Shown here: positions 11,440 to 56,408 of the stretch, piece by piece
Numbering within the stretch: position 1 is the first letter of the stretch
Layout: each line of letters starts with the position of its first letter
The notes under the pieces: model-generated
The model's input: the letters and a program-made list of their open reading frames with translations, nothing else
Told to the model about the DNA's origin: nothing
The model's database searches: none
Made by a program: the position numbers and the translations under genes
NCBI GenBank assembly: GCA_048270185.1
Contig: JBLWTJ010000003.1
Location: 224,001-288,000 of the forward strand
Length of the DNA stretch: 64,000 bases
Direction: 5' to 3'
Origin: Bacteriovoracaceae bacterium
Lineage (GTDB): Bacteria > Bdellovibrionota > Bacteriovoracia > Bacteriovoracales > Bacteriovoracaceae

Positions 11440-11952
11440 ATGGAAATTCAATTAGAACAAATTCAAAATATGATCTATGTGATTCGAGGACATAAAGTGA
11501 TGCTTGATAGTGACCTTGCAAAACTTTATGGAGTTGAAACCAAAAGACTAAATGAGCAAGTGAGAAGGAATTTGGATCGATTCCCTGAAGACTTTATGTT
11601 CCAGTTAAGTTCAGAAGAGTATGATTTTTTGAAGTCGCAAATTGCGACTTCAAAAGTAGGGAGGGGAGGAAAGCAGAAGAAACCTTTTGTTTTTACTGAA
11701 AATGGTGTCGCGATGCTTTCAAGTGTTTTAAAGAGTAAGCAAGCAGTTCAGGTTAATATCGCAATAATGAGGATTTTTACTAAGTTAAGGAGCTTTCTAC
11801 TTATGGAGCAGGAAAATAGTAAAAAGATTGACTCAATTGCGAAAGGTACTAATCAATTATTTAAAGTAGTTTTTGAAAGACTTGATAATTTAGAAGAAAG
11901 ATTACCTTCTCTCAATGATACCCGAAGAAAAATTGGACTAAATCAAAAATAA
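11440..11952 (+). CDS. ORF6N (KilA-N-like) DNA-binding domain protein
   Basis: IRGHKVMLDSDLAKLYGVETKRLNEQVRRNLDRFPEDFMFQL, FTENGVAMLSSVL, C-terminal RRKIG. Confidence 0.9.
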   Translation: MEIQLEQIQNMIYVIRGHKVMLDSDLAKLYGVETKRLNEQVRRNLDRFPEDFMFQLSSEEYDFLKSQIATSKVGRGGKQKKPFVFTENGVAMLSSVLKSKQAVQVNIAIMRIFTKLRSFLLMEQENSKKIDSIAKGTNQLFKVVFERLDNLEERLPSLNDTRRKIGLNQK

Positions 11953-40873: not shown

Positions 40874-42154
40874 ATGCAAAAACTCTTGAAATTTCTATTC
40901 TTATTAAATATTTCCCTGCTAAATTCATATGCAGCAAGCCTCGAACTTACAGAGACATCTGATCCTGTTATCAAACTAATGTCTGATAGTACGACTGAGA
41001 TAAATAATCTATTTGTTACTTCATCTGGAGATGCCAGAACTCTTGATGCAGCTCCTAAAATTTATGCACCAATTGGCTTGTCTTCAGGTACTCCATCTTC
41101 AAATTACTTCATTAGTGGCGTGACCCTTCCAAAAGCAACTGGGACATCTGGCGGTATACAGCTTACGGATGTGAGTGTAACTGGAGTAGGAAGTACAGAG
41201 AAGATCTATACTGCTATTTTAAATAATGATGATTCGACACCAACTTATCGTATTATTGGAGAGGTTACGAATCAGATAAATCCGTTTGTACCATATACTG
41301 CTTTATGTTTAACTGACTCAGTTGTATGCGAAGGATTTAGTGACTCAACTGCTTCGATCAAGCCAAATCTTGAGCTTGTTATTTTCGTTGCTTCGTCTGA
41401 TGCTGACTACTCAAATAATGATGATGTTAATGTTGATGATATCCCAGATGCCGTGGGGCAAGCTCTCTTTTTTAAGCTTATAATGAGTTCTTCAACTATA
41501 ATAAGTAGCCAAACACCTTTGATTACAGCAGATTATGATGGTGATTCAATGGGAGTCATTGAATACACTGGTGATTTTGGGTCAAACTCAAAGTATATTT
41601 CTCGTATTGTTTCTTATACTGATACTTCAAGTGGTACATTAAAGGGCGCAAGTCTAAGAGAGGTTAACGAAGGTGTTGGTGAAGAGGGAAGTATTACAGT
41701 TAGAAACCTTGCCAATAATCAAACCTACTTCTCGAGTATCGCTTATGTCGACCACTTTGGTTTCACTTCACAACTAAGTTCTGAAGTAACTCTTACTCCA
41801 AGACCAATTGAGGCCTTATTGGCCGCTAATCAATGCTACTTTGTGACGGCCGGGTTTCAACGCAATCACTATGTCCTAAATTACTTCCGCTATATTAGGG
41901 ATGAATTTCTACTAAAGTCGACAGTCGGAAAGGCATTTGTTGACTTTTATTATAGCAGTGCGCCACAATATGTCGGCTATATTCTAAATAACAAGTCCAT
42001 CGCTCATCGTGTAAAATCATATAGTTTCTCAACTTATTTTGTTTTACAAAATATGGCCTCTATAATAGGATGCATGTTACTACTTGCTGTATTTAACTAT
42101 TTTAGAAGACAAAGAAGAGAGCAATTTTATGCCTTACAAAGTTCTAATTGTTGA
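40874..42154 (+). CDS. Secreted Ser/Thr-rich protein with CFI-box-CTERM domain
   Basis: Signal peptide; CYFVTA...RYIRDEFL...GKAFVDFYYSSAP, then TM and basic tail. Confidence 0.75.
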   Translation: MQKLLKFLFLLNISLLNSYAASLELTETSDPVIKLMSDSTTEINNLFVTSSGDARTLDAAPKIYAPIGLSSGTPSSNYFISGVTLPKATGTSGGIQLTDVSVTGVGSTEKIYTAILNNDDSTPTYRIIGEVTNQINPFVPYTALCLTDSVVCEGFSDSTASIKPNLELVIFVASSDADYSNNDDVNVDDIPDAVGQALFFKLIMSSSTIISSQTPLITADYDGDSMGVIEYTGDFGSNSKYISRIVSYTDTSSGTLKGASLREVNEGVGEEGSITVRNLANNQTYFSSIAYVDHFGFTSQLSSEVTLTPRPIEALLAANQCYFVTAGFQRNHYVLNYFRYIRDEFLLKSTVGKAFVDFYYSSAPQYVGYILNNKSIAHRVKSYSFSTYFVLQNMASIIGCMLLLAVFNYFRRQRREQFYALQSSNC

Positions 42155-42500
42155 TGACGAACCAGATATTCTCGAGCTTTTAGCTGAAGAGCTAGAGTTT
42201 GAAGGATACGAGATTGAATGTGCCTATTCAGGGAATTCAGCTGTTAAGCTCATCGATAACGGTCATACTTTCGACGCTATTATCTCAGATTATAAAATGC
42301 CTGACGGTAATGGGAAGGTTGTGCTCGATTATTCGAATGGCCACAAAGATCAGAAAGAAAAAGTTTTCTACTTTGTTTCTGGCCAGGCCGATATTTCACT
42401 CAAAGAGGCCATGAAAGAGGGTGTTACACGCTTTTTCTATAAGCCATTTGATCTGGATGAATTACTTACTAGTTTAAAGAGCGACCTCGGACAGTCTTAG
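42129..42500 (+). CDS. Single-domain response regulator
   Basis: VLIVDDE, ISDYKMP, KPF; start at MPYK 42129. Confidence 0.92.
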   Translation: MPYKVLIVDDEPDILELLAEELEFEGYEIECAYSGNSAVKLIDNGHTFDAIISDYKMPDGNGKVVLDYSNGHKDQKEKVFYFVSGQADISLKEAMKEGVTRFFYKPFDLDELLTSLKSDLGQS

Positions 42501-43510
42501 TTTAAGACTGTCGAGTGATTGCCACGTACATAGCGATTCTTTCCAACATGATCTTCTTTATTTTCTTCCATTAGAAGATCCCAAAATCCATCCATTTCAT
42601 CATACTTTGCAATTAGCTCATATGTACGCCCAAGACCTTGCCTCGAGAATGCACTTCTTTGGAATTCAACATTAGTTCTAAGACTATCAAACTCACCTCT
42701 AAGAGTTGCAACTGTTTCATCTGTAAGGTCAGCGAACTCTTCTTGCATAAGATCTAAGATACGGTTTGCAAGTCTCTTAGGTCCAAAGTAACTTGAAATA
42801 AATTTAACAAATACTGTCGCATTGATCTTTCTAAGAATAGGGTTGGCCTTATCGTAGAATGCACTCAGGAAGCATTCATCAATCTGCTGGTGTCTAACTT
42901 CATCAAGCATATGATAGTAGTGACATTGCCAGAAGTTCCAGTCCACATCATTCTTCTTTAGGGCCTTATTATATTTTTTCGAAATATCCAGGGTTCTTTC
43001 TTCAAAGAAGAGAGCAATCCAAATCCACCATAGAAAGATCTGTGGAAACATTGTTACGATCTTCATAATGATATTTTGAGTACGAGTTAATTTAAAAATT
43101 CTTAGTGGATTCTCTTTTGAATAATTATGCGGCTCGGCCTTCATTAACATTCTTAAGAAGATCTCACCGTGTTTGTCCTCTTCTTCCATAAAGTGATCAA
43201 TGGCCTCTGCCATTTGATCATTTAATTTATAGATTCGCTTACAGCTTCTTAGAGCTGGATTTAGAAGTACATTTTCAAACCAAATAAATTGCTCACAAAT
43301 TGATAGACCAATTAATTGGTTGAAGCGAAGTTTTTGAGCATCAGTTAAGAGGTCATAGCTTGGAAGATAAGAGAGAGTAATCATCTCATCTGGAGTCCAT
43401 TTTAAGCTATGATCAATAGGCTTAGTCCAATCTAGGGCCTCAACAGTGAAGGCGCGATCAATAGATTGCTTATTTAGCCTTTCTAATTTTTCAACTAGTC
43501 TTGTTTCCAT
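42497..43510 (-). CDS. AurF-like ferritin-fold diiron oxygenase
   Basis: FE..., EEEDKH, FFEE, HMLDEVRH carboxylate/His ligand pattern. Confidence 0.8.
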   Translation of the reverse strand: METRLVEKLERLNKQSIDRAFTVEALDWTKPIDHSLKWTPDEMITLSYLPSYDLLTDAQKLRFNQLIGLSICEQFIWFENVLLNPALRSCKRIYKLNDQMAEAIDHFMEEEDKHGEIFLRMLMKAEPHNYSKENPLRIFKLTRTQNIIMKIVTMFPQIFLWWIWIALFFEERTLDISKKYNKALKKNDVDWNFWQCHYYHMLDEVRHQQIDECFLSAFYDKANPILRKINATVFVKFISSYFGPKRLANRILDLMQEEFADLTDETVATLRGEFDSLRTNVEFQRSAFSRQGLGRTYELIAKYDEMDGFWDLLMEENKEDHVGKNRYVRGNHSTVLN

Positions 43511-43758
43511 ATTGCCCTCAATTCTTCTTTATGATTATTTTCTAGGTAATTAATTAAGTCCTGTGTTGTCTGACACTGGAGGAAGATCGTAACAGGTAGC
43601 TCATCAAAGTCTTCCTTAAGCCTTGCAATGAACGACATAGCGTCATATGAGTCAAGGCCAAGTGTTGCAAACTTTGTCTCAAGATTGAGTTCGATATTCT
43701 TTTCTTCAGCAACTTCTGCAATCGCTTCATTTAAATATTTTAGAACCTCTTGAGTCAT
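43495..43758 (-). CDS. Acyl carrier protein
   Basis: 87 aa, acidic, LGLDSYD phosphopantetheine Ser. Confidence 0.9.
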   Translation of the reverse strand: MTQEVLKYLNEAIAEVAEEKNIELNLETKFATLGLDSYDAMSFIARLKEDFDELPVTIFLQCQTTQDLINYLENNHKEELRAIWKQD

Positions 43759-43772
43759 ATTTAATTCCCGCT

Positions 43773-45389
43773 TTATCTACCTATATTTTCTCTTAATAAG
43801 AAATTGAATTTAAATTTATTTTTAATAAAAGATGCTTTTAGGAGTTCAAATCGATAACGATTCTCTCTCGAAGTTAGCTCGCCACTTAAGAAGCGCTTCT
43901 TAGCATCCTGTCTCTTTACTTTACCACTTGTTGTCTTCTTCAGGGTAAGCTCTGGAAGAATTACTATGTGGTGTTTAGAAATAGACACTTTTTTGCTCAC
44001 GACCTCAGCGATTTGAGACTTGATTTTATCTCGACAAGTAGCTGATTTTTCGTTGATTTCTGCCACAATATAGGCCGTCTCACTCTTTTCATCACTAACA
44101 GAGAAGGCAACGACACGTCCGAGCTTAACTTCAGGAACTTGGGCCGCTAAGAACTCAATATCATTGGCAAAGATATTGACTCCATTACAGATGATGAGAT
44201 CCTTACTTCTTCCTGTTACATAGAGGTTATTGTCTTTAAGAAAACCTAGATCTCCCGTATTAAGCCAGCCGTCTTCTAAGTGAGACTCACGTCCGTAGTA
44301 GTGAGTTGAAATCGATGGTCCTTTGATATAGATTTCACCTATACCATTGTCACTATTTCTAATCTCAATCTGAGTTGGAGCAAGTACCTTTCCACATGAG
44401 ATATATTCTTCACCATCACGATTTGTTGACTCATACTTTGTTTCAACTTCGTGAAAAGTAACAGCAAGAGTTGCTTCAGCAAGCCCGTATACTGGCATAA
44501 TTGCATTGGCATTAAAGCCATACTTTGCAAATCTCTTAGAAAATGCATCAAGGACATTTCTCTTAATGGGCTCAGCTCCGCATTGAGCAAAGCGGATATG
44601 ACTTAAGTCTAATCCTTCAAGCTTACTTTCTGGAATCTTTGTCGCACACACATAGTAGGCCGAGTTTGGAATACAAAGTGCAGAGCACTTTGTTTCAGAC
44701 ACAAGCTTAAGCCACTTATGAGGGGCGAGCATATAGTCTTGAGTTCGAACAATATGACATGGAAGATTCTTTAAAAGAGCAGTCAGTAAACTTCCTATCA
44801 GTCCCATATCATGGTGTAGGGGAAGCCACGTGCAGATTGAATCGTTCTCATTGAGTTTTATTCCAGTATTGATTTGTTCATTATTTGCTAAGAGATTTCT
44901 TTGGCTGACTACGACACCTTTAGGGGCAGAAGTTGATCCAGATGAAAATTGAATAAAGCAAGTATCGTCTAATGTTGGGTTATAGAAGCTAGTGTCCAAT
45001 GGTGAATTTTCTAATTGCGCTATATTTGTAAAATTAGCAGGTGTAGACTTTGAGGCGATATACTTAGTTTTTGCACTTGTAGCAAATTGCATAAGTAGTG
45101 TTTCAAAATCATCTTTTAGCATAAGAGCGTTGGATGCCATTGGAACTGGTGTATTCTTAGAAAGAAGAATACCAAAGAAATATGTCACAAAACTTTCTTC
45201 GTTTTCAAATGAGAGAATAATATTCTCATTCTCAATTGCTTGTGCCTTAATATTTGAAGCAATTTGCTTTGCCTTGAGCATCAGTTCATCAATTGATAGT
45301 GAACTTACTAGCTTAAAGTTCTTGTAAAAGAATAGAACTTCTTTGTCTTTATTTGTGTTGCTATTAAGTAGTTCTAGAATATTATTCAT
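43773..45389 (-). CDS. Fatty acyl-AMP ligase (FAAL)
   Basis: QFSSGSTSAPKG, WLPLHHDMGLIG, YGLAEATL, TGDLG, GRSKDLII, KTTSGK. Confidence 0.9.
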   Translation of the reverse strand: MNNILELLNSNTNKDKEVLFFYKNFKLVSSLSIDELMLKAKQIASNIKAQAIENENIILSFENEESFVTYFFGILLSKNTPVPMASNALMLKDDFETLLMQFATSAKTKYIASKSTPANFTNIAQLENSPLDTSFYNPTLDDTCFIQFSSGSTSAPKGVVVSQRNLLANNEQINTGIKLNENDSICTWLPLHHDMGLIGSLLTALLKNLPCHIVRTQDYMLAPHKWLKLVSETKCSALCIPNSAYYVCATKIPESKLEGLDLSHIRFAQCGAEPIKRNVLDAFSKRFAKYGFNANAIMPVYGLAEATLAVTFHEVETKYESTNRDGEEYISCGKVLAPTQIEIRNSDNGIGEIYIKGPSISTHYYGRESHLEDGWLNTGDLGFLKDNNLYVTGRSKDLIICNGVNIFANDIEFLAAQVPEVKLGRVVAFSVSDEKSETAYIVAEINEKSATCRDKIKSQIAEVVSKKVSISKHHIVILPELTLKKTTSGKVKRQDAKKRFLSGELTSRENRYRFELLKASFIKNKFKFNFLLRENIGR

Positions 45390-47739
45390 TCAGAGCTCCT
45401 TCGAGGTAGCTTATAATCTCCATCGTACGATTAAAAACAACAGGCATGAATTCATATTCAGAAACACTGTGTCCCACATAGTAGAAGAGCACTCGATTTA
45501 ATAAATATTCATTTGCACAGGCAAGCATATTAGTTAGCTTCTCCTTGCGCGCTAGTTCTAATGAATCTTGAGCAAGATAATAATCAATATCGGCTTCAAT
45601 CTCAGTTACAGGTGTTGTAAAACTCATAAACTCAACAAGGTCGCGATATGGAGAGTTATATCTCGATAACTCCCAATCATAGAAACATGGACGGCCATTC
45701 TTAAAGCAGATATTTCTTGGATTAAAATCATTATGAGTCAGAGTTTTTGGGCCCTGATCGATAATTTTCATCCACGAGGAGCTTTCTTTAACTATTGATT
45801 CAAGCTTAGCTTCCGTCTCTTTACTGATATAATTTTGCGCTCTGATATAAGTAATAATCGAATCACATAGGTCGGTATCAATACTTGTCTTACCTGTATT
45901 TAGAGAAGATTCTCTAATTAAATCACTCTCGCTAAAATGAGTGTGAACTTTTGAGATGGCATTATAAATGAGCTCTCTAGTGGACTTCGTCCAGAGATCA
46001 AGTTGGCCTTGAGTATTCATTAGCTCAATTTGAGTGTCATTTAAGTTCTCTAAAAGTAGTAAATAAGCTTCTTTTTGCGTGTTGATATACGTTCCATGTA
46101 GTTTTGGAAGATATCTTTCAAATTCTTGAGATACGAATTCATATGCTTCAATTTCTCGAATATGACATTTTGTAAACTCGTTATCTGATTTTGTCTTTAA
46201 GAACTTGCGTCTAATATCACTGTCGGCAAAACCAGCAATGGCCGCAAGACCTGCGATAACGTCACTATCCATAGGCTTTGATTTAAGGATGATTTTGTCC
46301 TTACCATCTACTGTAAGGGCCGTAAAACCAAGGGCCTTGTTAACAACACGTGATGTGGCCTCTGTAATGATTCCGTTTTCAATATTAATTTTTACATCAT
46401 GTTCAATACTTTCAGCATTCTTAATAATATCACTTTGAACCTTAAAGTTTTCAGTGATGAATTCCTTTGTAATATCTTTTGTCTTAATTTGATCTTTTGG
46501 ATTATTGCGTCCTAGTTTGTCGTGAGCGTAAGCAAATTGGCCTCCACAGATGGCCGACATTGTTGAAAGCTCAAGAGAGAGGGCAGCACCAGCAATGATT
46601 TTGGCAAGTCTTTCAACTTTTCCAGCACCAGAGCATCCAATTGATTGAAGACAGTTCTTATAATGTCCAAGCCCTGTTCCACCACCAACTGTTCCAATAA
46701 CAAGAGAAGGTAGTGTTAAGCTTACATAGAGTCCTTTTTCATGTTTCTCAAAGTTTAAAACGGCCGTCGAAGACTCGTGAATACAAGCAAGGTCTTGCCC
46801 TGTTGAAGCAAAGATTGCAGCAACAGCGTTTGCAACGTTTACGTTATATCCTGTCATTCCCTCTAGGCGAGTGATAGGAAGTGACCTTAAGTATAGATTA
46901 ATAAGATCTGTTGAAGTTGTTTTTAGAACTCTTTGTAGAACTTTTTCTGTGATAACACATTCTGCTGTGACATATGTACCACGTGTTTGCATTGCTGAAC
47001 CAACTGAAACTTTTTTATCGCTTGATCCATTTCCTTCTAAGAAGAATTCAATCATCTTAATCTTAGAAGTTAGCATTTCTTCTTTAATCCAAAGACATGC
47101 CTGCCAAGTACAAACAGTTGTCATATTTTGACCAGAAGCATCCCCTGACTCATAAATGAATTTTGCGTGTACGTTACGTCCAATAAGAACGGGTTTAATT
47201 TTTATAAGATTTGCAAAGTTTGAATATTTCTTAGTGATACTTTTAATTGTATTAAAATTTTCTTCCAGCCAATTAATAAAATCATCAGCGTGATCGATAT
47301 TTTCAAATGTAAATACTGGTGCGCGATACATGCGCTTTCTTGTTACACGAGAGCGAAAACCACCACAAAGTGAAATAGCAAAAGCACCACGAGTAATTGA
47401 AGAAACAAGAGCTCCTTCAGAAGTTGCAATAGGAATATAAATATCTTCTTTTTCTTGATCTTTACCAATCATCTTAAGTGGCCCACAAATACCAAGTGGA
47501 ATTGAGACGCTCCCAGCATAGGACTCAATATTTCCCTTTAGATTAAAACCATCAAGATCAGTGTTGATTAAAGACTCAAGACTTTCTCCGCATTGTTCTT
47601 CAAGAATTGAAATACGCTTAAGGCGTGCGGCCTCAGAATAGTCAAAACGCGAAGGAGCCGATGCCTTTCTTGTCGGTTGTTCATTTGGGATTGTCACCTG
47701 TGAGGAAGCACTATTTGTTGCTGAGATTTCTATTTTCAT
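45382..47739 (-). CDS. Class I HMG-CoA reductase-like domain fused to an APH/choline-kinase-like phosphotransferase
   Basis: PIATSEGALV, GDASGQNM, GNGSSDKK, TGQDLA, GTVGGGT, AHDKLGR; C-terminal THNDFNPRN and YDWE. Confidence 0.85.
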   Translation of the reverse strand: MKIEISATNSASSQVTIPNEQPTRKASAPSRFDYSEAARLKRISILEEQCGESLESLINTDLDGFNLKGNIESYAGSVSIPLGICGPLKMIGKDQEKEDIYIPIATSEGALVSSITRGAFAISLCGGFRSRVTRKRMYRAPVFTFENIDHADDFINWLEENFNTIKSITKKYSNFANLIKIKPVLIGRNVHAKFIYESGDASGQNMTTVCTWQACLWIKEEMLTSKIKMIEFFLEGNGSSDKKVSVGSAMQTRGTYVTAECVITEKVLQRVLKTTSTDLINLYLRSLPITRLEGMTGYNVNVANAVAAIFASTGQDLACIHESSTAVLNFEKHEKGLYVSLTLPSLVIGTVGGGTGLGHYKNCLQSIGCSGAGKVERLAKIIAGAALSLELSTMSAICGGQFAYAHDKLGRNNPKDQIKTKDITKEFITENFKVQSDIIKNAESIEHDVKINIENGIITEATSRVVNKALGFTALTVDGKDKIILKSKPMDSDVIAGLAAIAGFADSDIRRKFLKTKSDNEFTKCHIREIEAYEFVSQEFERYLPKLHGTYINTQKEAYLLLLENLNDTQIELMNTQGQLDLWTKSTRELIYNAISKVHTHFSESDLIRESSLNTGKTSIDTDLCDSIITYIRAQNYISKETEAKLESIVKESSSWMKIIDQGPKTLTHNDFNPRNICFKNGRPCFYDWELSRYNSPYRDLVEFMSFTTPVTEIEADIDYYLAQDSLELARKEKLTNMLACANEYLLNRVLFYYVGHSVSEYEFMPVVFNRTMEIISYLEGALNE

Positions 47740-47843
47740 TCTTCAAATATAGCTTAAACAGGGATTGTTAAGTGGCTTTATGAAAATAGTATAGTGGCCG
47801 TCTGTTAAGTAGACAGAAAGTGTATCCCTATAAAATCAGTGAC

Positions 47844-48770
47844 TTATAGGCTGAATAACGTGTACCTTCGATCTCTTTGTGAAATATCCTTGGCAAAGAG
47901 TGAAGGAAGATTTCCATCTCTCATAAGACACAGGTAGGCCTGCTCATACTTGTCTCTAATGGCCGGGATAATAGACTTTAGTAAATAGATAAAGGTTAGT
48001 CCCATATGGCGATGATCTGGGTGAACTCCCATGGTCTTAATAAGTAGTCGTTTGGCGCTTGGATCTGTGACGTCAATGAAGTTTAAGATGATCCCAATGA
48101 TCTCGTTAGATCCTTTTTCAATAAGACAACACGATGTATGCGGGCAGATAATGGCCGCCATTTGTCGCCCATATTTTTGTTTGAAGGTATCAAGTGTGAC
48201 ACTTGAGTAGGCGAGATTATCACCAAAGACTTCTTCGGCACTTGCATAGAATTTATCAATATTTGAAAGCCAGTAATCGGCATCAATCATTTGAAGTTCA
48301 TAAGCAGATTCAATTGTATTTTGGTCAATACCATCAAATTGTTCGGACCACTTAAGAAGTTTTTCAAAATCATTAATTTCATAAGTTAGATATTTTTCAA
48401 ATACTTCACCATGTTGACTTAAAAAATTATAGAAGTTCATGTCACAAGGAGGCTCCATCAGATAAGTCGGCCTATAATCTTCATCACAAAGACGGTAAGT
48501 GTTATATGTTGAAAAATTTAGGGGACCAACAATCTTTTCACACTTATTCTTTGTCTTGTAGGCAATGGCAGCTTCCTTGAAAGCGTCAAATTCGATCTGT
48601 GTGAAGTTACCATGACAAAAACCAAAATAAGCACAGTCTGCTATTTTAAAGAAAATCGAATGACTACTTCCAGAAGTAAATTGTTCGATATTTAATAATT
48701 CCGGTCCATTCTTAAATAGTTCATATTCAATCTGTTGTTCTGGTGAAAGTAATTCGATATTAATTGACAT
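47844..48770 (-). CDS. GNAT-fold protein (YghO-like two-domain)
   Basis: VGPLNFST; C-terminal KTMGVHPDHRHMGL acyl-CoA loop. Confidence 0.65.
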   Translation of the reverse strand: MSINIELLSPEQQIEYELFKNGPELLNIEQFTSGSSHSIFFKIADCAYFGFCHGNFTQIEFDAFKEAAIAYKTKNKCEKIVGPLNFSTYNTYRLCDEDYRPTYLMEPPCDMNFYNFLSQHGEVFEKYLTYEINDFEKLLKWSEQFDGIDQNTIESAYELQMIDADYWLSNIDKFYASAEEVFGDNLAYSSVTLDTFKQKYGRQMAAIICPHTSCCLIEKGSNEIIGIILNFIDVTDPSAKRLLIKTMGVHPDHRHMGLTFIYLLKSIIPAIRDKYEQAYLCLMRDGNLPSLFAKDISQRDRRYTLFSL

Positions 48771-49695
48771 AAATACCTACAATAATTGCAATATAGAGTA
48801 GAAGGGCATAGAGGCCAAAACTTGCTTCATTTTTCTTGCGACCTTTTAGACTTGGTTCTTTGACAAATTTTACAAGAGTAATCTGAGCAAAGACAAATCC
48901 AATTGTTGCCATAGCTATTGTTATGACCTTGTAATTTGGCATAATCGTTGTAAAGAAAAGAAAGCAACCAAGAGTGATAATATTCATAAGAGAGATAATC
49001 ATCACTGTTCCATTAATACCGTAAATCTTTGTGTACGAATCAAGTGTTTCAGTTTCTTCTTCTGGCCCACGACATTTTCTTGTGAACTCATAAGAGAAAC
49101 CGGAAGCAAGACTCATGGCCAGTACAATATAAGTATAGAGTTCAAATTGTGGCATATTCCACTTTGACGACATAATCCAAATAATTATAAGAGGTGAGAC
49201 GAGCATATGAGAAAAAGAGTAGAGTGTTAGTCTCTTCTCAAGCCAACTACCAATAAAGAACTCTTTGGCCATAAGGGTCGACCAAAGATAGACAATACCG
49301 TAACAAATAAGTGTTAGATAATTATTTTCAATAAGAAGACTAAAAGCGATGGCGATAGCTGTAAATAGCACCGCAATGGTATCGAGGTGAGCAAGTTTAA
49401 TTAATCCCCTTTGAAGGGCCCTTTTAGGGTGATTAATGCAATCGATCTCATAATCTTTGTGCTCATCAAAAACTCTAAGTATAAAATAGTGGCCAACAAC
49501 AGCTAGTGCCCCAAGAATATCAAGTAATTTAAACTCTAAATTTTGATCAGTAAGATAGAGTGCAACTCGGCTCATGACAATATAAGTAATAATTCCTGAA
49601 ATAACATTGGCCATTGGAAATCGCTCTTGTGACCAAGCAAAGTATCTCTTATAAAATGGATCTTCTATCGTTATATGACTTATATCCTTACTCAT
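48760..49695 (-). CDS. UbiA-superfamily prenyltransferase
   Basis: Multi-TM; RVFDEHKDYEIDCINHPKRALQRG; second acidic motif YEFTRK..GPEEE...DSY. Confidence 0.8.
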   Translation of the reverse strand: MSKDISHITIEDPFYKRYFAWSQERFPMANVISGIITYIVMSRVALYLTDQNLEFKLLDILGALAVVGHYFILRVFDEHKDYEIDCINHPKRALQRGLIKLAHLDTIAVLFTAIAIAFSLLIENNYLTLICYGIVYLWSTLMAKEFFIGSWLEKRLTLYSFSHMLVSPLIIIWIMSSKWNMPQFELYTYIVLAMSLASGFSYEFTRKCRGPEEETETLDSYTKIYGINGTVMIISLMNIITLGCFLFFTTIMPNYKVITIAMATIGFVFAQITLVKFVKEPSLKGRKKNEASFGLYALLLYIAIIVGIYVN

Positions 49696-49764
49696 GTATA
49701 AGGCCCCCTTAAAGTATTTATTTCCTTGATTACATTATATAATGAAAACAACTATAATTGGGAT

Positions 49765-50799
49765 ATGGCAAAATATTTTACTGAAAAACTAAATTACTCC
49801 CTTGCAAACGAGGATATCTCTTTTGAGGCAAATCTTTGTAAAAAGTTAAACCCTAAGACAATAGGCTCAATCTGTGGTGCTGGGCCACGTGGCCTATACT
49901 TAGCGACAAATGATTCAAGTCTCGACTTATTTGATGTTTCAGGACTTCAGGTAGAATGGGCAAGAGCTTATGAAAAGGCGATTACAGGACTTGATGAAGT
50001 AAGCTTTTTAAGGGCATATCATGATGATTCTGCAATATTAAAAAGTATTGATGTGAATCATGGGCTAAATCAGATCATTGATGAAAATGAATTAGCTGCT
50101 CTTGCGGGAAGTTGGGAGAAAACATTTATCAAATTTTCCAAAATTGCGTCAAAGATACTAGGGAAGAAGCTAATCAATGCATTCAAGCATTGTAAGACGA
50201 TGGAAGATCAAGACTTAATCTTGAATTCAACATCCTTTAAGATTCGTTGGACTGTCGTTTTATCTATAGTTGGAAATAAGGCCCTAATGAATTCACTTCT
50301 TTATCGTGGTGACTTCATTAAGAAGAATATTCCAGAGAGTTATGTGCGCTTTTATCGAAAACGTTTTGCTCACTTATTCTCACTATCGCTTGTAAAGGAT
50401 AATTTCTTCTTAAGTCTTTGTCTTTTTGGTGAAGTATCTTTAACAAATACACCTCTTCGTTATCGTGATTTTGAAGAACTTAAGAATGCCGTAACAACTT
50501 CAAATATTAAGTATCATATTGGAGATGTTGTTACGAAGCTTAAAGAAGGTAGTCAACAATATGAGTACTTTTCTTACTCCGATGTACCAAGCTACTTTGA
50601 TGACGAATTAGGAAGGAACTTTGTTCAAATGGCCAAACCTTCCATAAAAATTGGCGGAATCATTTGTGTTCGTTACTATCTAAGAATTCATAAACCAGAT
50701 CTTAATGGCTTTGAAGAAGTTACTTCTGAATACGCGGATGAGATTGGAAGAGAGAGAGTTGGTGTCTATGACATCAGATTATATAAGCGAGTAGCCTAG
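49765..50799 (+). CDS. DUF3419/BtaA-like SAM-dependent transferase
   Basis: LNYSLANED, ICGAG..L, GSWE..F, SDVPSY; ATG 49765 preferred over TTG 49726. Confidence 0.7.
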   Translation: MAKYFTEKLNYSLANEDISFEANLCKKLNPKTIGSICGAGPRGLYLATNDSSLDLFDVSGLQVEWARAYEKAITGLDEVSFLRAYHDDSAILKSIDVNHGLNQIIDENELAALAGSWEKTFIKFSKIASKILGKKLINAFKHCKTMEDQDLILNSTSFKIRWTVVLSIVGNKALMNSLLYRGDFIKKNIPESYVRFYRKRFAHLFSLSLVKDNFFLSLCLFGEVSLTNTPLRYRDFEELKNAVTTSNIKYHIGDVVTKLKEGSQQYEYFSYSDVPSYFDDELGRNFVQMAKPSIKIGGIICVRYYLRIHKPDLNGFEEVTSEYADEIGRERVGVYDIRLYKRVA

Positions 50800-50800
50800 G

Positions 50801-53461
50801 CTACTCGACTTTTATAATTCCTTTATCACAATCCATTTCAATCATTTGACCATTCTCTAATACTTTCGTGATATTTGGAACACCAACAATTGTTGGGATC
50901 TTTAATTCTCGGGCGATGACGGCCGAGTGAGAAAGAGTAGAACCTTTTTCTACGAGAAGCCCTTTTATTGAAGGAAATAGCGGTGCCCAACCTGGATCAG
51001 TTCTTACCGTACAAAGAATTTTGTCATTAACATCAATACCTTCGTCTGGTTTAAAGAGAAGGGCAACTTCACCTTTAATATGACCAGGGTAGCAACCAAT
51101 ACCTTTAAGTGCACCATCTGGGTCAAACTCAGTATTGCCATCATATTCAAAGCTATTGGCCACGTGAACGAAACCATGAGTTGTAAAGTGGTGTCCAGGC
51201 TCATTCATTTCATATGACTGATACTCTTCTTTTCTTAACTCAATTAAAGCCTTAAGATTTCTTTGAACAATACGCCCATCTTTAAACTCTTCAAGTTCAT
51301 TTAAAGTTAAGTAATAAATATCTTCTGGAGCATTAATTATCTCAAAAGCAGCAAGTTGTTTTCCCATTTCACTATAGATCTGTCTTGAGATACCAAATGA
51401 CTTTGTTCTTAGAAGGCGAGTGTTTTCACGGTATCGAATGGCCTTTCTAAGTTTTGACAGATCTTTATAAAATTTAGAACGACTAAAAATTGAAAGCCTT
51501 TCTTTAACGATAGGAGCTATCTTGGCCTCTTCAGAATCTCGAAGTTCCATTTCATTGGCGATAAATCCTTCGTAATTTAAATCTTCTTTTTGAACGTAAT
51601 TCTTTAAGATATTTATGAGAAAGCTAGGATCTTCTCTAAGAGATAAACTCTCAAGCTTAAGCTCTCCAATGGTACGATCACCATAGTTTTCAATATATTC
51701 AAGACACATATTATAGACTCGAATATTATTGATATAGAGATAATCTAGAACTTTATGATTTTCCATATTAAGAAATGTCTTAATACTTTCAGCATCCCAC
51801 TTCTTTATTTGATCACTAATTTTTAAGAGTTCTTTTGTCGGTTGAGTACTGGCAATATCGTGTTCACCTGATAGTAGATTTCCAAGAGTGATATCAGGGT
51901 TTTCAACCTTTAGCTTATCCATCCAGCGATACATCTTCCCATTCATCATCATAACGTAGAAGTCATTGATGAGGGGAGCATGCCACTTATCTGTAATTTT
52001 CTTATCTAGTTCTTCCGTTAACTCAAAAAGCTCTGTTAGGCTTAGACGATTAAGTTTTGAATAGTCGATGGTATGATAGACTTTATAGAAATCGGTCATG
52101 AAATTTTCAACAACTTTATCGATTTTTGAGAAATACCACAGAAGACTTCCAAAACATCGAATCATATTTGGGAGCATGGCCAGTTTTTCTCTAAAGCTTA
52201 GTTGCTTGTCTTCGATAAAGTCGACTGGGTCAGTAATCCCCATCATTTTTTCCATATCTTCTTTTGATTGATTAAAAGAAGGAAGAAGCAGAAGTCCCTT
52301 ATACCAAGATTGAATATTATAAAATACACGGCCTTCAATTAGGGCAATCATATTTTTATGGCGTTTCTCATGTTTCTTTAGCTCTTCTTCACTCAGTCCT
52401 GAAAGTCCAAGTAGTTGGTGATAGACTTTGTAGTACATCTTTGAAGCGTATGAAAATGTAAGAGGTGTCGTGACGCCATTAAAAGACTCTTGAATATTTG
52501 AGTTATCAAAAACATTCTCAAATTTCGATCTCTTATCTTTAGGAAGGGAAGTGATATCTCTTGTTTGCACAATATAGATTTCTCCCTCTCTAATACAGAA
52601 CTCAATATCTTGTGGCTTCTTCTTTATTGTTAGGATATTTAAAGCAAGCTCTCTTAGTTCTCTAATTTCAGAGTCCGTTAAAACATGAGATAATTTCTGT
52701 GATTCTTCAATATTCACTTTCTTTGTCGTTTTTAAGTCGTAGTCGGCGATAATTTTGAAGTCTTTTTCTCGAATTTCGTATTTAATTTCCTCATTATCAT
52801 CGATGGTGTACTCATCTGTATTACATTCACCACTAACAACTCCTTCTCCTTGACCAAAGTTAGCTGAAAGAAGCATTTGATCGCGGCGTCCATTAATTGG
52901 GTTTGCTGTGAACATAACACCTGATTTCTCTGGATCAATCATTTCTTGAATAATGACGGCCATCTTTGGTGTTGTTTGGTGAATTCCATTCTTAAAGCGA
53001 TATGTAAGTGCGGTTAAGGAGAAGTTACTCTTAAAGCAATCTTTAATGGCCTTTGCAATCTTATCTTCCCCTTGAACATAGAGAAATGATTCAAGTTGCC
53101 CTGCAAATGAGAAGTGAGCACCATCTTCATCGGCAGCGGAGCTTCGTACAGCATAGTGCATATCTCTTTCTAGATGAGTAGCTACTTTATCGATGATATC
53201 AATTTCACAAAGGTCAATTTGATCATGAATATTTTTTATGAGCTCTTTTAGTCCATCAATGGATTCAAGATTTGTGTACTCTTCAATAAGAGCATTTAAC
53301 CTGTCATTTTTGTCCACTATCGTTTGAAAGTAGTCACTCGTGATACAAAACCAGTCCGGAGTTGAAACCTTACACTTTTCAAGTTTAGCAAGATTATAGG
53401 CCTTGCCCCCAACTTGCGACTTGTGTGCAAGTAATGATTCAAATTTGTTTAAAAGATACAT
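50801..53461 (-). CDS. PEP-utilising ATP-grasp/His-swivel enzyme (RPH/PigC-type domain order)
   Basis: VGGKA, AVRSSAADED..FSFAGQ, SGVMFT, DIEF, QTRDIT; C-terminal TDPGW and LSHSAVIARE. Confidence 0.9.
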   Translation of the reverse strand: MYLLNKFESLLAHKSQVGGKAYNLAKLEKCKVSTPDWFCITSDYFQTIVDKNDRLNALIEEYTNLESIDGLKELIKNIHDQIDLCEIDIIDKVATHLERDMHYAVRSSAADEDGAHFSFAGQLESFLYVQGEDKIAKAIKDCFKSNFSLTALTYRFKNGIHQTTPKMAVIIQEMIDPEKSGVMFTANPINGRRDQMLLSANFGQGEGVVSGECNTDEYTIDDNEEIKYEIREKDFKIIADYDLKTTKKVNIEESQKLSHVLTDSEIRELRELALNILTIKKKPQDIEFCIREGEIYIVQTRDITSLPKDKRSKFENVFDNSNIQESFNGVTTPLTFSYASKMYYKVYHQLLGLSGLSEEELKKHEKRHKNMIALIEGRVFYNIQSWYKGLLLLPSFNQSKEDMEKMMGITDPVDFIEDKQLSFREKLAMLPNMIRCFGSLLWYFSKIDKVVENFMTDFYKVYHTIDYSKLNRLSLTELFELTEELDKKITDKWHAPLINDFYVMMMNGKMYRWMDKLKVENPDITLGNLLSGEHDIASTQPTKELLKISDQIKKWDAESIKTFLNMENHKVLDYLYINNIRVYNMCLEYIENYGDRTIGELKLESLSLREDPSFLINILKNYVQKEDLNYEGFIANEMELRDSEEAKIAPIVKERLSIFSRSKFYKDLSKLRKAIRYRENTRLLRTKSFGISRQIYSEMGKQLAAFEIINAPEDIYYLTLNELEEFKDGRIVQRNLKALIELRKEEYQSYEMNEPGHHFTTHGFVHVANSFEYDGNTEFDPDGALKGIGCYPGHIKGEVALLFKPDEGIDVNDKILCTVRTDPGWAPLFPSIKGLLVEKGSTLSHSAVIARELKIPTIVGVPNITKVLENGQMIEMDCDKGIIKVE

Positions 53462-53504
53462 TTGCTACCTAACATTTTATATTAATTTAATTTAATATTA
53501 TCAC

Positions 53505-55070
53505 ATGAGAAAAATTGAAGATATAAGGAAAACTCTGGGTTATTTGGACAATCAAGAAACACCAATAAATGGTTGCCACTACCTCGATGCTCACTTTAGA
53601 AATCAACTTAATAAGCGCTGTCTTGTTTACGAAGATCAAGATCAAAACTTTGGTGACTTCATGGCCGAGGTCGGTGCCTGGATAAATACTTTAACCGATC
53701 AGGGAATTGGGCGAGGGGATCGAGTGATTATTCTTCTTCCATTAAGGTTAGAGCTCTATCAATTAATGTGTGCCTTGTTCTATATTGGTGCTGTTGTCGT
53801 CTCTGTTGACTCCACAATGCCAAAGGATAAGCTAAAACTTGCAATTGAAGATGCAAAGGCCAGTGCCATCTTCTCTGTTTCGGCCCTTCTAAAATGGACT
53901 CCTCTTTTGCCGTCCCTTTGGAAGTTAAAGCGCTATACATTTGAAGAGTCATGCTTCTTTGCAAAAGACCTAGCTATACTTCGTGCTGATAATACACTTG
54001 ATTTTAAACAAGTTGATATTGGTGAGAATGGCCCGGTTCTTATTTCTTTTACTTCTGGCTCAACTGGAAGGCCAAAAGCCGCCAATCGAAGTCTTGAAAT
54101 CTTTCTTGCACAAAAAATTGTTTCTGAATTTTTCTGGCTTCACAGTGAAGATGAGATTGATATGCCATTTTTTCCAACTCTTGTTTTACAAAATCTTGGT
54201 CTTGGGATTACGACAATCTTCCCTGATTTAGACTTTAGAAAGATTAGAGATTTTGACCCATCAAGAGTTATAAAGCAGATGAATGATTATGGTGTCACTC
54301 GTTTTAGTGCAACCCCTATGATCATTAAAAAACTTGCAAAGTACATTGCTGTAAAAGGGATATCAATTCCTACTCTTCGCTCTGTTATTATTGGTGGTGC
54401 AGAGATCACAACACAGGCCGCTACGACTGTTCTTGCTGCCTTGAAGCTAGCTAACCCAAATGTTGAAGTACATATTATCTACGGTTCAACAGAAGTTGAG
54501 CCTATAAGCTTTACTCCTATTGAGGATTATATTGAAAATCAAAGTATTGGTTTGAAACTGGGAAAAGTTATTGACGTCTTAGATATTAAAATAAATCCAG
54601 TTACTGATATTTTTGATTTCAATGAAGGACTAGAGTGGGGCGAGATCTGTTTAAGTGGCCCTCATGTAATTAAAGAATATATTGATAATCATCCGGCCAA
54701 TAAGACAACTAAGATTAGAGATGAAGATGGACATCTGTGGCATTTAACTGGTGATGTTGGTTATGTAAAGGATGGTCTAGTCTATCTTCTTGGACGTCTA
54801 AAAGACTGTCTTATTATCGATGGGTTAAAGTATCCGACCTTTCACTTTGAAAATGCTTTGGCCAAAATTGAGGGAGTGCAAAGAGCTGCCCTAATTCAAA
54901 AAGATAGTCGAGTAATTTGCTATATCGAGGGGGCGCAGACTTCGAGAGAAGTTGTTAAGAGTTATCTTGATAATTATTTTAGAAATTGTTTTGAAATTAT
55001 TTATCGTGAGATCCCAGTTGACTCAAGACATTTCTCTCGAGTCAACCGTAATGAATTAAGAAGTTATTAA
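53505..55070 (+). CDS. AMP-binding adenylating enzyme (OleC-like)
   Basis: FTSGSTGRPK, YGSTEVEP, WHLTGDVG, GR. Confidence 0.85.
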   Translation: MRKIEDIRKTLGYLDNQETPINGCHYLDAHFRNQLNKRCLVYEDQDQNFGDFMAEVGAWINTLTDQGIGRGDRVIILLPLRLELYQLMCALFYIGAVVVSVDSTMPKDKLKLAIEDAKASAIFSVSALLKWTPLLPSLWKLKRYTFEESCFFAKDLAILRADNTLDFKQVDIGENGPVLISFTSGSTGRPKAANRSLEIFLAQKIVSEFFWLHSEDEIDMPFFPTLVLQNLGLGITTIFPDLDFRKIRDFDPSRVIKQMNDYGVTRFSATPMIIKKLAKYIAVKGISIPTLRSVIIGGAEITTQAATTVLAALKLANPNVEVHIIYGSTEVEPISFTPIEDYIENQSIGLKLGKVIDVLDIKINPVTDIFDFNEGLEWGEICLSGPHVIKEYIDNHPANKTTKIRDEDGHLWHLTGDVGYVKDGLVYLLGRLKDCLIIDGLKYPTFHFENALAKIEGVQRAALIQKDSRVICYIEGAQTSREVVKSYLDNYFRNCFEIIYREIPVDSRHFSRVNRNELRSY

Positions 55071-55864
55071 TTTGTCGGCATGAGACAAAGCTTCTTAATT
55101 TTCTTTGTAAGCTTAGACGGCAGTGTTGATCTAATCATGGCCCAGAAGCTTAGTCTGTGTCCGTAACAAGATTGCCACTCTGGAGTGTACATCATACCCT
55201 CATCTTCTAAGTCTTTTTCGTCTAAATAGTCTTGAAGGTGAAGATCAAGAAGTCTCTCAGAATCAGACTTATGAAGAAGTCTTGATTGATAAAGTGAGTC
55301 TGCGATTTCAAACGGTGTAATAAAGCTTTTTTGACCGCTGTAGAGCTTATTATCAGCATTGAAGTTATAAGCTGCACGAATGAAAATATAGAATTTAATT
55401 CCAGGGTATTCCTCACTTACATCATGATAGAAAGTATGGTCATGTTCTCCATTATCACCAACAAGGATAACTTGATCTGGTTTTTCTCGTTCAATGAGCT
55501 CGCGAAGTTTTTGTGCCTTAAATACTTTTGTTGAAACTTTAATTGGCCTAATGAGTAGATTTTCTTGTTGAGGAAAATCTCCTGCATACAGAAGAGTTGA
55601 ATGAGACCACTTCATGACTTCGGCCGGAGCATTTGTTAGATAGTAAATATCCGCATCAAGTCTGCGCTCAATAATCTTATAAAGATCGGCCATCCCTAGA
55701 AAGATATTTGTCACTCGGTAAGCATTCTTTACTGCAGCGATTTTATTGCGAACATGGGCAACCTTAACCGTATCATCAATATCTGAGACGAGGATGGTCT
55801 TTGCTGCATGGGCGCTAAGGTTTAATGTCAGGAGAATTATCAGTATTATTTTTAAATTTTTCAT
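55067..55864 (-). CDS. App1-like phosphatidate phosphatase (HAD fold), exported
   Basis: Signal peptide (AHA); VSDIDDTVK, LVGDNGEHD. Confidence 0.8.
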   Translation of the reverse strand: MKNLKIILIILLTLNLSAHAAKTILVSDIDDTVKVAHVRNKIAAVKNAYRVTNIFLGMADLYKIIERRLDADIYYLTNAPAEVMKWSHSTLLYAGDFPQQENLLIRPIKVSTKVFKAQKLRELIEREKPDQVILVGDNGEHDHTFYHDVSEEYPGIKFYIFIRAAYNFNADNKLYSGQKSFITPFEIADSLYQSRLLHKSDSERLLDLHLQDYLDEKDLEDEGMMYTPEWQSCYGHRLSFWAMIRSTLPSKLTKKIKKLCLMPTN

Positions 55865-55922: not shown

Positions 55923-56408
55923 TTATACAGAGATTTCGTTAAAATTACTTAGCCAAGTATTGTATTGCTTACAGCCTTTGACCTCATTAATCTTTAAAAG
56001 ATAGAGTCTCTTGTAAGTATTAAAAGTTAGGATATCGCCACGGGCCTTGATGGAGTTAAGTTGATCGATCTCTCTAAAATGTTCGATATTGCGATAGTCA
56101 CACGTTCCAATCGTTTCAGTCTCGATCTTCATTTTTGCCTTAACCTCTAAGTCAAGCTTCTCAAGTAGGGCCAGCTGCTCTGGGCGTAGTTGAGACTTTG
56201 CTTGCTTTAAGGCGTCGATGTATTTTATTGATTCTTTAAGGCTACTTTGGGCCAGTGTTCCTAATCCTCTTGTACTGTAACTAGTGAACTCCTCTAATTT
56301 GGCCTGACTGCGAAATAGGTATTGGTCAAGCTCATGAAGGCGTAGGGCCGCATTTGAATTTAATGCGTAAACGCCAAGTAGAATGAGGAAATAGTATTGC
56401 AATTTCAT
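55923..56408 (-). CDS. Secreted hypothetical protein
   Basis: Signal peptide MKLQYYFLILLGVYALNSNA; helical. Confidence 0.75.
   Translation of the reverse strand: MKLQYYFLILLGVYALNSNAALRLHELDQYLFRSQAKLEEFTSYSTRGLGTLAQSSLKESIKYIDALKQAKSQLRPEQLALLEKLDLEVKAKMKIETETIGTCDYRNIEHFREIDQLNSIKARGDILTFNTYKRLYLLKINEVKGCKQYNTWLSNFNEISV

Follow-up and report, generated by a model that had tools for sequence, protein, structure and literature searches.

A reductase-kinase fusion and its recurring neighbours point to an uncharacterised lipid pathway in a Halobacteriovorax-like bacterium

Introduction

What might a predatory bacterium make with ten tightly packed enzyme genes, one of which fuses a reductase to a kinase? 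The genes in question, g01 to g10 (Table 1), occupy positions 42497-55864 of a 64,000-nucleotide stretch of DNA from a Bacteriovoracaceae bacterium (assembly GCA_048270185.1, contig JBLWTJ010000003.1, positions 224,001 to 288,000); the term "window" is used below for this whole stretch. An initial annotation, made from the sequence alone, read them as a coherent but uncharacterised lipid-type cluster. That reading is borne out here, the wider interpretation of the initial annotation being supported in part, and full-text literature searches gave no paper describing the gene cluster. What emerges is a so far uncharacterised variant of lipid biosynthesis, in which a six-gene core can be defined and one step has a biochemical anchor. 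Its likely role is to convert fatty acids to phosphorylated fatty alcohols and to incorporate these into an unusual envelope lipid, possibly by an ether-lipid route that is new.

The host is a Halobacteriovorax-like predatory marine bacterium, represented by an assembly of 3.35 Mb in 30 contigs that is 95.9% complete. The closest named relatives of the fusion protein, g04, come from Bacteriovorax sp. BAL6_X (81%) and Halobacteriovorax vibrionivorans (78%). Moreover, the two best-scoring loci found elsewhere (L001 and L002) are from Halobacteriovorax genomes and have a gene order identical to that of the window.

The reductase-kinase fusion

The anchor of the cluster is g04, a protein of 785 residues with Pfam matches to HMG-CoA_red (344.6 bits) and to APH/EcKL. 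Its N-terminal half resembles the class I reductase (HMGR) of HMG-CoA (3-hydroxy-3-methylglutaryl-coenzyme A), with 6hr7 as the best match in the Protein Data Bank (PDB; 258 bits), and falls short of the HMGR model TIGR00533 (288.8 against a cut-off of 441.8). Residues were mapped through alignments to 6hr7 and 8ecg and through the residue numbers given in PMC11948995, and were compared across 79 proteins, namely the window protein and 78 relatives. The catalytic E72, K242, D316 and H406 are invariant in all 79 fusion proteins. At position 235, which corresponds to Ser684 in the cis-loop of the canonical enzyme, glutamate is found in 65 of the 79 and aspartate in 14. The HMG-binding lysine is lost, lysine not being among the commonest residues at positions 284/285, and the position of human Leu862 is F402 in every protein. 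The window protein reads LEGNGSSDKKV and LYLRSLP where canonical class I HMGR has SGNxCxDKKP and K-N-L-x-G-S; both aligned canonical structures, 6hr7 and 8ecg, have Ser and Lys at the HMG-binding positions.

These are the changes by which the fatty acyl-CoA reductase FcrA is told from HMGR, in which Ser684 is replaced by Glu, the lysine is lost and Leu862 is replaced by a bulky residue (PMC11948995). The lysine is printed as Lys795 in that paper and is taken here as the HMG-binding one. According to the same source, assayed FcrA reduced fatty acyl-CoA and did not reduce HMG-CoA. The N-terminal domain of g04, carrying this signature, is best regarded as a putative FcrA-type fatty acyl thioester reductase, and reduction of a fatty thioester by g04 is supported because the characterised relative shares the signature residues. 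The proposal of the initial annotation that an HMGR fold reduces a fatty thioester to an alcohol at this locus has thus found a precedent in FcrA (PMC11948995). A stronger argument, in which the residue changes were to serve as their own proof of a new substrate, had been considered and was dropped, since the residues recur in stand-alone Bacteroidota proteins that carry an HMGR annotation; their published meaning came later, from PMC11948995.

Two further residues, N301 and T393 (each in 79/79), separate the fusion clade from the stand-alone Bacteroidota relatives. The N301/T393 pair is shared by other stand-alone reductase relatives of 395-429 residues that have no kinase (P0121-P0168) and that are hosted by Streptomyces, Pseudomonas, Burkholderia, Microbulbifer and Pseudobdellovibrionaceae. 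The kinase half keeps HNDFNPRN and DWE wherever a fusion protein is complete at these motifs (76-77 of 79), and a PDB sequence search with this half returned no significant match.

The housekeeping HMGR

The reductase domain of g04 is not the cell's housekeeping HMGR. A second PF00368 gene of the same genome lies in a mevalonate operon composed of an IDI2-like gene, HMGR, diphosphomevalonate decarboxylase (MVD) and a GHMP kinase (C1:441000-459000, L079), and the HMGR encoded there belongs to class II (best PDB match 7n7s, 469 bits). A search of the genome for the N-terminal domain of HMG-CoA synthase (PF01154) gave no match. Two Flavobacteriaceae genomes that carry the fusion also hold a class II HMGR, 56-57% identical to this enzyme, together with MVD; with mevalonate-linked HMGRs of class II in these genomes, there is no need to regard the stand-alone class-I-like proteins as true HMGRs. 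In one Hahella and one Pseudomonas genome the fusion is the only HMGR-type gene, and a search for MVD in these two genomes found none. A second copy in a Myxococcales genome (L088) gave an extracted open reading frame (ORF) that matched neither HMGR class.

A core that recurs across phyla

The fusion alignment was used to scan one genome per species from 185,579 species. This returned 466 matching stretches, 450 of which encode a relative, and the best-scoring of the 450, close relatives included, make up the 78 distinct loci compared here. They come from six groups, the Bacteroidota, Bdellovibrionota, Gammaproteobacteria, Myxococcota, Spirochaetota and Acidobacteriota, and relatives of the fusion fall into more than 1,000 protein clusters in metagenomes. 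Neighbouring genes were identified by tblastn on the loci, by Pfam annotation of 14 of them, and by profile hidden Markov models built from the annotated neighbours and run on all 78. Neighbour counts refer to the 40 loci of at least 20 kb (full loci) and to scores of at least 100 bits.

The dikinase is the neighbour seen most often, in 32 of the 40 full loci, followed by a CarS-like gene in 25. A CoA ligase is found in 19, a UbiA-like gene in 16, the tandem GNAT in 14 (its family in 22 of the 78), a CDP-alcohol transferase in 13, a fatty-acid desaturase in 12 and an MMPL protein in 10. Less frequent are PlsC-like and methyltransferase genes (8 each), DUF3419 and a short 240-residue membrane protein (6 each), LolA-like genes (5), AurF (4), fatty acyl-AMP ligase (FAAL; 3) and APP1 (2), and three loci (L004, L026 and L032) hold none of the main partners. 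The initial annotation had set two phosphoryl-transfer enzymes beside a UbiA-like one, and such enzymes do co-occur: a dikinase is present in all 16 full loci that have the UbiA-like gene.

What recurs outside the family is g04-g09, that is, the fusion, the dikinase, the UbiA-like protein, the tandem GNAT and the acyl-CoA ligase, together with either a BtaA-like protein or a pair consisting of a CarS-like protein and a CDP-alcohol transferase. Chance does not account for the arrangement, six of the ten genes recurring beside the fusion in other phyla. Co-occurrence elsewhere had been named in the initial annotation as one of the checks, and for these six genes it speaks in favour of the cluster. 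The notion of ten genes as one unit did not survive it; the core is confined to g04-g09, the FAAL, acyl carrier protein (ACP) and AurF genes are a lineage add-on, and the APP1 gene is independent.

The BtaA-like family (DUF3419) and the CarS-like gene never occur together. They are found in 6 and 25 of the 40 full loci, respectively, with neither in 9, and in 9 and 41 of the 78 loci, with no overlap in either sample; DUF3419 is likewise never found with the CDP-alcohol transferase. DUF3419 and the CarS-like/CDP-alcohol-transferase pair are accordingly read as alternative head-group modules. No CarS-like gene was found in the genome studied here, which fits the BtaA-like alternative. The order ligase-DUF3419-MMPL is kept in Myxococcota and Acidobacteriota loci, and the MMPL and LolA-like neighbours suggest export to the envelope.

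Two observations stand apart from these counts. In the genome studied here, the best match to the MMPL gene of one of the clusters (L003) is encoded at C3:190187-192439, about 80 kb from g01-g10 on the same contig, with 30% identity and 364 bits. In a Bacteroidales locus (L023:13436-18737), the fusion and dikinase lie with an NTP_transf_5 nucleotidyltransferase and two thymidylate-kinase-like proteins, in a neighbourhood without UbiA-like, CarS-like or DUF3419 genes.

The fusion is accessory. It is found in 8 of 201 sampled Bdellovibrionota genomes, the present one included, and in two of three other genomes of the same genus. In the same-genus genome without a fusion match (G123), the flanking genes, at 51-55% identity, lie on different contigs, so that the boundaries of an empty site are not definable.

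Layout and gene content of the locus

All ten ORFs are present where the initial annotation placed them, and its description of packed genes in mixed orientation, overlapping or separated by 1 to about 105 nucleotides (nt), agrees with the computed spacing, which from g01 to g10 is -16, 14, -8, 104, -11, 30, 1, 43 and -4 nt. Six genes, from g06 through g05, g04, g03 and g02 to g01, form a head-to-tail series on the minus strand in which overlaps of 11, 8 and 16 nt occur, g07 and g09 lie on the plus strand, and g08 and g10 on the minus strand. The cluster is flanked by the housekeeping genes rpsD, a class IV aminotransferase gene, ThiI and a tail-specific protease gene.

Nine of the ten proteins have a Pfam match at E <= 0.01, the exception being g05, and in a scan of twelve proteins against NCBIfam all scores stayed below the curated cut-offs. 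Most of the domains named in the initial annotation stand, by Pfam or by fold; its "PEP-utilising" enzyme is, by contrast, a rifampin-phosphotransferase (RPH)/PigC-type dikinase, and its "HMG-CoA reductase" carries the FcrA signature. It was also correct that ketosynthase, nonribosomal peptide synthetase (NRPS) condensation and terpene cyclase domains are missing, as none appeared in Pfam scans of the window proteins.

The region is spanned by DNA contigs of two public sequencing runs, one record covering 8,210 bases (44802-53011), and these runs may include the source sample itself. One RNA library contains short contigs over parts of g01, g04 and the spacer between g10 and g11; DNA carry-over is possible, and they are not counted as expression, nor are stretches that they leave uncovered informative.

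Table 1. Features of the locus and of the surrounding window (window coordinates)
Feature	Position	Strand	Assignment
g01	42497-43510	-	AurF/CmlI-like diiron oxygenase; Pfam AurF, 52.3 bits (cut-off 29.6)
g02	43495-43758	-	Acyl carrier protein; Pfam PP-binding, 48.4 bits; GLDS serine motif
g03	43773-45389	-	FAAL-like adenylating enzyme; Pfam AMP-binding; 8-nt overlap with g04
g04	45382-47739	-	Putative FcrA-type class-I-HMGR-fold acyl thioester reductase (residues ~30-415) fused to APH/EcKL-type kinase (~450-785); cluster anchor
g05	47844-48770	-	Tandem-repeat GNAT-fold acyl or aminoacyl transferase (predicted fold)
g06	48760-49695	-	Divergent UbiA-superfamily membrane transferase (predicted)
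g07	49726-50799	+	BtaA-like (DUF3419) putative S-adenosylmethionine-dependent transferase
g08	50801-53461	-	RPH/PigC-type ATP-dependent dikinase: ATP-grasp, middle domain, C-terminal swivelling His domain
g09	53505-55070	+	Acyl-CoA synthetase-like adenylating enzyme; Pfam AMP-binding
g10	55067-55864	-	APP1-like phosphatase; N-terminal signal peptide; Pfam APP1_cat, 76.8 bits; DIDDT motif
g11	55923-56408	-	161 residues; signal-peptide-like N-terminus; no Pfam or NCBIfam match
	40874-42154	+	426-residue protein with CFI-box-CTERM domain (NF041770, 40.7 bits)
	42084-42500	+	Stand-alone response-regulator receiver
	7641-9344	+	Pyruvate kinase (barrel and C domains)
	11440-11952	+	ORF6N-domain protein, 121.8 bits

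Enzymes of the core

Rifampin phosphotransferases (5fbs/5hv1, 278 bits) are the best PDB matches of the dikinase, g08. Its only Pfam domains are PPDK_N, at residues 15-314, and PEP-utilizers, at 813-881, and the histidine of the swivelling domain is present in the motif LSHSAV. Scores against the NCBIfam models for RPH (356 against 999) and PigC (294.8 against 1300) are below the curated cut-offs. No phosphoenolpyruvate (PEP)/pyruvate TIM-barrel domain is present, and the RPH-like architecture without this PEP-binding barrel argues for a small-molecule dikinase and not a PEP synthase. In the RPH/PigC family, the beta-phosphate of ATP is transferred through a phospho-histidine, while in PPDK the gamma-phosphate goes to phosphate, and the known RPH-family enzymes phosphorylate hydroxyl groups.

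The UbiA-like protein, g06, has approximately eight hydrophobic segments and a conserved first motif (D77, D81 and D85). A PDB sequence search returned nothing significant, with DGGGP synthase as the best match at E 0.16. Three of its homologues exceed the Pfam UbiA cut-off, namely those in L060 (43.9 bits), L003 (39.2) and L059 (37.0). In Flavobacteriia loci, the 240-residue protein is a short UbiA-like homologue (hhalign 88%, E 3.2e-6; shared motif RxxD[DE]...D...HPxR). This polytopic membrane protein has no Pfam match and is encoded at L008:15288-16016, at L005:15258-15980 and in six further Flavobacteriia/Bacteroidota loci; its operon comprises PlsC-like, reductase-kinase, CarS-like and dikinase genes, the 240-residue protein itself, a methyltransferase and a desaturase.

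In the case of g05, for which Pfam gave no match, the predicted structure (AlphaFold2, AF2; pLDDT 81) is that of a tandem GNAT. The best Foldseek hit was 7q3a (E 1.7e-8), with MAB_4324, the MprF C-domain, MshD and FemX also found, and the atlas feature score to GNAT clusters was 0.97. The BtaA-like protein, g07, matches DUF3419 with 52.3 bits against a cut-off of 28.2. The match is fuller in its homologues, as in L003 (100.2 bits, E 1.9e-28, residues 3-320) and L057 (E 1.3e-60). Finally, g09 is a generic acyl-CoA-synthetase-type enzyme, with 293 bits to NF006754 (cut-off 478) and FadD5 as its best PDB match (73 bits).

Lineage-specific genes and the neighbouring phosphatase

The trio g01-g03 is an add-on of the Bacteriovoracaceae/Oligoflexia. 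FAAL, ACP and AurF genes are all present in L001-L003, the ACP being found by tblastn in these 3 of the 78 loci only; AurF near the fusion is limited to L001-L004, and in L004 it accompanies a ligase. For g03, FAAL is the best NCBIfam match (NF006624, 369.5 bits, below the cut-off of 600), the best PDB matches are FAALs (3pbk, 241.7 bits; 3kxw, 220.2 bits), and the ACP gene begins 14 nt downstream. The diiron ligands of g01, E79, E111, H114, E170/171, H200, E204 and H207, are invariant in 14 sequences and make a 3-His/4-carboxylate set. Its AF2 model (pLDDT 89) is closest in Foldseek to CmlI (5hyh, E 6e-5, TMt 0.68), with AurF at TMt 0.56-0.67, although a PDB sequence search gave nothing significant; 15 relatives were found in a large protein collection, and the cluster has no aryl-amine-forming gene.

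The initial annotation had also proposed reductive release of the chain from acyl-ACP. FcrA proteins fused to ACP exist (PMC11948995), so the FAAL-ACP pair could conceivably hand acyl-ACP to the reductase in this lineage. As a general rule the idea does not hold, because it is the CoA ligase (19 of the 40 full loci), and not FAAL-ACP (3 of the 40), that the reductase has as its conserved partner.

The phosphatase gene, g10, is probably not part of the pathway. APP1 is found near the fusion in 2 of the 78 loci, L001 and L002, both from Halobacteriovorax, and APP1 homologues occur in 12 of 41 genomes of the family (the present one included), among them four without a fusion match (G009, G050, G095 and G138). 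This fusion-independent distribution, together with the signal peptide, makes g10 an unlikely pathway member, and the doubt that the initial annotation had itself expressed about this gene was right. On the same two grounds, a scheme in which the APP1 phosphatase feeds the BtaA-like enzyme was rejected.

Several neighbouring features were seen in passing. The CFI-box-CTERM protein abuts the cluster, the ORF of the receiver gene ends 4 nt inside g01, and both genes are syntenic in L001 and L002. On the other side, g11 lies beside the APP1-like gene and is conserved in L001 and L002 only. Further away, the pyruvate kinase has weak C-terminal 4Fe-4S ferredoxin-type matches at residues 512-562, which would be an unusual fusion if real, and the ORF6N-domain protein is encoded amid housekeeping genes; this domain is common in regulators of phages and mobile elements.

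The proposed pathway

The domain identities, conserved catalytic motifs and gene co-occurrences described above can be arranged into a route of seven steps. A fatty acid would be activated by the CoA ligase, g09, and in this bacterium the FAAL, g03, and its ACP, g02, would also load one; in this lineage the chain carried by the ACP may be a substrate of the diiron oxygenase, g01. The FcrA-type domain of g04 would then carry out a four-electron reduction of the thioester to a fatty alcohol, which the kinase half of the same protein would convert to an alkyl phosphate. We infer every step from the alkyl phosphate onward, along with the acceptor and the product. The dikinase, g08, would add a second phosphate, and from the resulting diphosphate g06 would move the alkyl chain onto a hydroxyl acceptor, so that an ether-linked lipid forms. 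The tandem GNAT, g05, may add an acyl or aminoacyl group. Lastly, the BtaA-like g07 would attach a phosphorus-free head group derived from S-adenosylmethionine, in place of which the CarS-like/CDP-alcohol-transferase pair would build a phospho head group in other phyla.

Weighing the alternatives

The preferred reading is thus an accessory envelope-lipid pathway that leads from fatty acyl thioester through alcohol, alkyl phosphate and alkyl diphosphate to UbiA-type alkyl transfer and a phosphorus-free head group, and it is given a probability of roughly 0.4. A number of points weigh against it, several of which concern g06. Its Pfam UbiA score of 23.7 bits is below the cut-off of 34.2, and its second acidic motif is altered, with E203..R206 K207..E214 instead of an Asp-rich sequence. 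UbiA enzymes normally ionise allylic diphosphates, and a saturated alkyl diphosphate would need different chemistry; a 2-enoyl thioester, or desaturation, would give an allylic alcohol. In 16 full loci the dikinase is present without a recognised UbiA-like gene, six of them having the short 240-residue form, and the locus counts in general describe the sample and not independent events. A BtaA-type function of g07 would follow from family membership, with a partial match confined to residues 128-316 of 357. Finally, all three FcrA-type residues also occur in stand-alone Bacteroidota proteins that are annotated as HMGR, so the signature may be less than fully diagnostic by itself.

The strongest competitor is a CDP-type, Kennedy-like scheme in which an alkyl or hydroxy-alkyl phosphate serves as the lipid anchor and is then CDP-activated or, in this bacterium, dephosphorylated and BtaA-decorated. 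There would be no alkyl transfer; the dikinase would act on a different hydroxyl, and the UbiA-like protein would use an ordinary prenyl diphosphate on the lipid or its head group. The high frequency of the CarS-like gene (25 of the 40 full loci) favours such a scheme, as do the minimal loci L006, L030 and L046, which consist of the fusion, a CarS-like gene, a CDP-alcohol transferase and a desaturase only. A CarS-like gene with a CDP-alcohol transferase and no UbiA, as in L006, fits direct CDP activation equally well, and this too counts against the preferred pathway. Moreover, RPH-family enzymes phosphorylate hydroxyls, and the mevalonate operon makes prenyl diphosphate available. The scheme is nevertheless judged unlikely, given that the UbiA-like gene is always accompanied by the dikinase (16/16), that a CarS-like gene is absent from this genome, and that a single-chain alkyl phosphate would offer no free hydroxyl for a BtaA-type reaction unless dephosphorylated, the sole nearby phosphatase, g10, having a signal peptide and being unlinked to the cluster. 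Less likely again is a diffusible or specialised metabolite, such as a signal, surfactant or antibiotic, in which FAAL-ACP-AurF and the GNAT would yield a derivative of a fatty amine or amino-alcohol, either N-oxygenated or N-acylated. In its structure g01 comes closest to CmlI and AurF, both arylamine N-oxygenases, stand-alone reductase relatives occur in Streptomyces, Pseudomonas and Burkholderia, and the distribution is patchy (8 of 201 Bdellovibrionota genomes, with one same-genus genome lacking a match). The partners that recur across phyla, however, are lipid-type membrane enzymes (UbiA-like, CarS-like, CDP-alcohol transferase, PlsC-like and desaturases) and MMPL/LolA-like exporters, and Pfam found no ketosynthase, NRPS condensation or antibiotic-type tailoring set.

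Two further schemes are far less probable. One extends the alternative given in the initial annotation, a prenylated product from mevalonate; g04 would be a genuine HMG-CoA reductase, mevalonate would be phosphorylated by the kinases, and the UbiA enzyme would prenylate an acceptor. Prenyl diphosphates are indeed the usual UbiA substrates, and the Pfam HMG-CoA_red match of g04 is strong, with its catalytic residues kept. This scheme is nonetheless highly improbable, since a separate mevalonate operon with class II HMGR, MVD and GHMP kinase is present in the genome; FcrA-type substitutions occupy the HMG-binding positions, the fusion occurs in the Hahella and Pseudomonas genomes where no MVD was found, and a decarboxylase or prenyl-chain synthase is absent from the cluster by Pfam. 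It is equally hard to believe that g04 supplies fatty alcohol only, with functionally unrelated neighbours, for wax esters or for AGPS-type ether lipids. Fatty alcohol for wax esters is the published role of FcrA, and AGPS- or PlsC-linked ether lipid synthesis has been suggested for some bacteria (PMC11948995). Against this stand the fused kinase, conserved with intact motifs in all fusion proteins complete there, and the fact that the dikinase, UbiA-like, GNAT and ligase genes keep their synteny with the fusion across phyla. A WS/DGAT search of the genome gave no match, but its control was silent everywhere, which makes this result uninformative.

Implications

If the proposed pathway is true, g04 would have an enzyme activity not described so far, that of a fatty alcohol kinase fused to its reductase, and RPH-type dikinases and UbiA-type transferases would gain a new substrate class. 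It would also provide a new origin of bacterial alkyl/ether lipids, whose head groups would switch between a phospho and a phosphorus-free type. Given the spread of the fusion over six groups, it is tempting to suggest that the pathway could explain some of the environmental non-isoprenoid alkyl glycerol ethers that lack known makers and enzymes. As the anchor fusion is widespread, the lipid could matter for envelope biology, for the phosphorus economy of marine bacteria and for the reading of lipid biomarkers. Even without the ether step, the cluster would offer a defined, testable context for many FcrA genes that are unlinked to wax esters.

Comparison with known systems

The individual enzymes recall several known systems, each of which departs from the cluster in some respect. 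The dikinase has the three-part architecture, with a swivelling His domain at its C-terminus, that is known from rifampin phosphotransferase, PigC/RedH and flavonoid phosphate synthetase-type dikinases, whereas its scores are below every curated NCBIfam cut-off. In BtaA/BtaB betaine-lipid (DGTS) synthesis, the BtaA family (DUF3419) includes g07, and the mutual exclusion with CDP-type genes fits a phosphorus-free head group; the match of g07 is, however, partial (128-316), and the proposed acceptor is not ordinary diacylglycerol.

Among bacterial ether-lipid routes, the myxobacterial ElbD/AGPS and the PlsA/PlsR plasmalogen synthase routes also activate a fatty acid, reduce it to the alcohol and build it into a lipid, as is proposed here. 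To our knowledge, alcohol kinases, dikinases and UbiA-type transferases take no part in either. Conversely, this cluster has no FAR-type (FarA) reductase domain. ElbD and AGPS are both mentioned in PMC11948995.

The closest characterised relatives are the FcrA enzymes of Natronomonas pharaonis and Ca. Promineifilum breve, which share with g04 the class-I-HMGR fold, the four catalytic residues and the three pocket substitutions, and some of whose loci have an acyl-CoA ligase nearby, as here (PMC11948995). The fusions described for FcrA are with Lad and ACP, while g04 is fused to an APH/EcKL-type kinase, and its neighbours are not WS/DGAT or AGPS. The terms "kinase", "phosphotransferase" and "UbiA" do not occur in the main text of PMC11948995.

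Finally, the archaeal ether-lipid pathway (GGGPS, DGGGP synthase, CarS and CDP-alcohol transferases) has in common with the cluster a UbiA-family transferase, although the best PDB match of g06 to DGGGP synthase reaches only E 0.16. In other phyla, a CarS-like gene and a CDP-alcohol phosphatidyltransferase adjoin the fusion, much as both enzymes figure in the archaeal pathway. The donor there is a prenyl diphosphate and not, as proposed here, a fatty alkyl diphosphate that derives from a fatty acid; moreover, searches of this genome found neither PcrB/GGGPS nor CarS, and g06 has an altered second acidic motif. The proposed logic is nevertheless the same, a chain being moved from its diphosphate to a hydroxyl. 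It is conceivable, if doubtful, that bacteria possess a third ether-lipid route that applies this archaeal logic to fatty chains, through FcrA reduction, double phosphorylation, divergent UbiA-type alkyl transfer and completion by either a CarS-like/CDP-alcohol-transferase or a BtaA-like head group.

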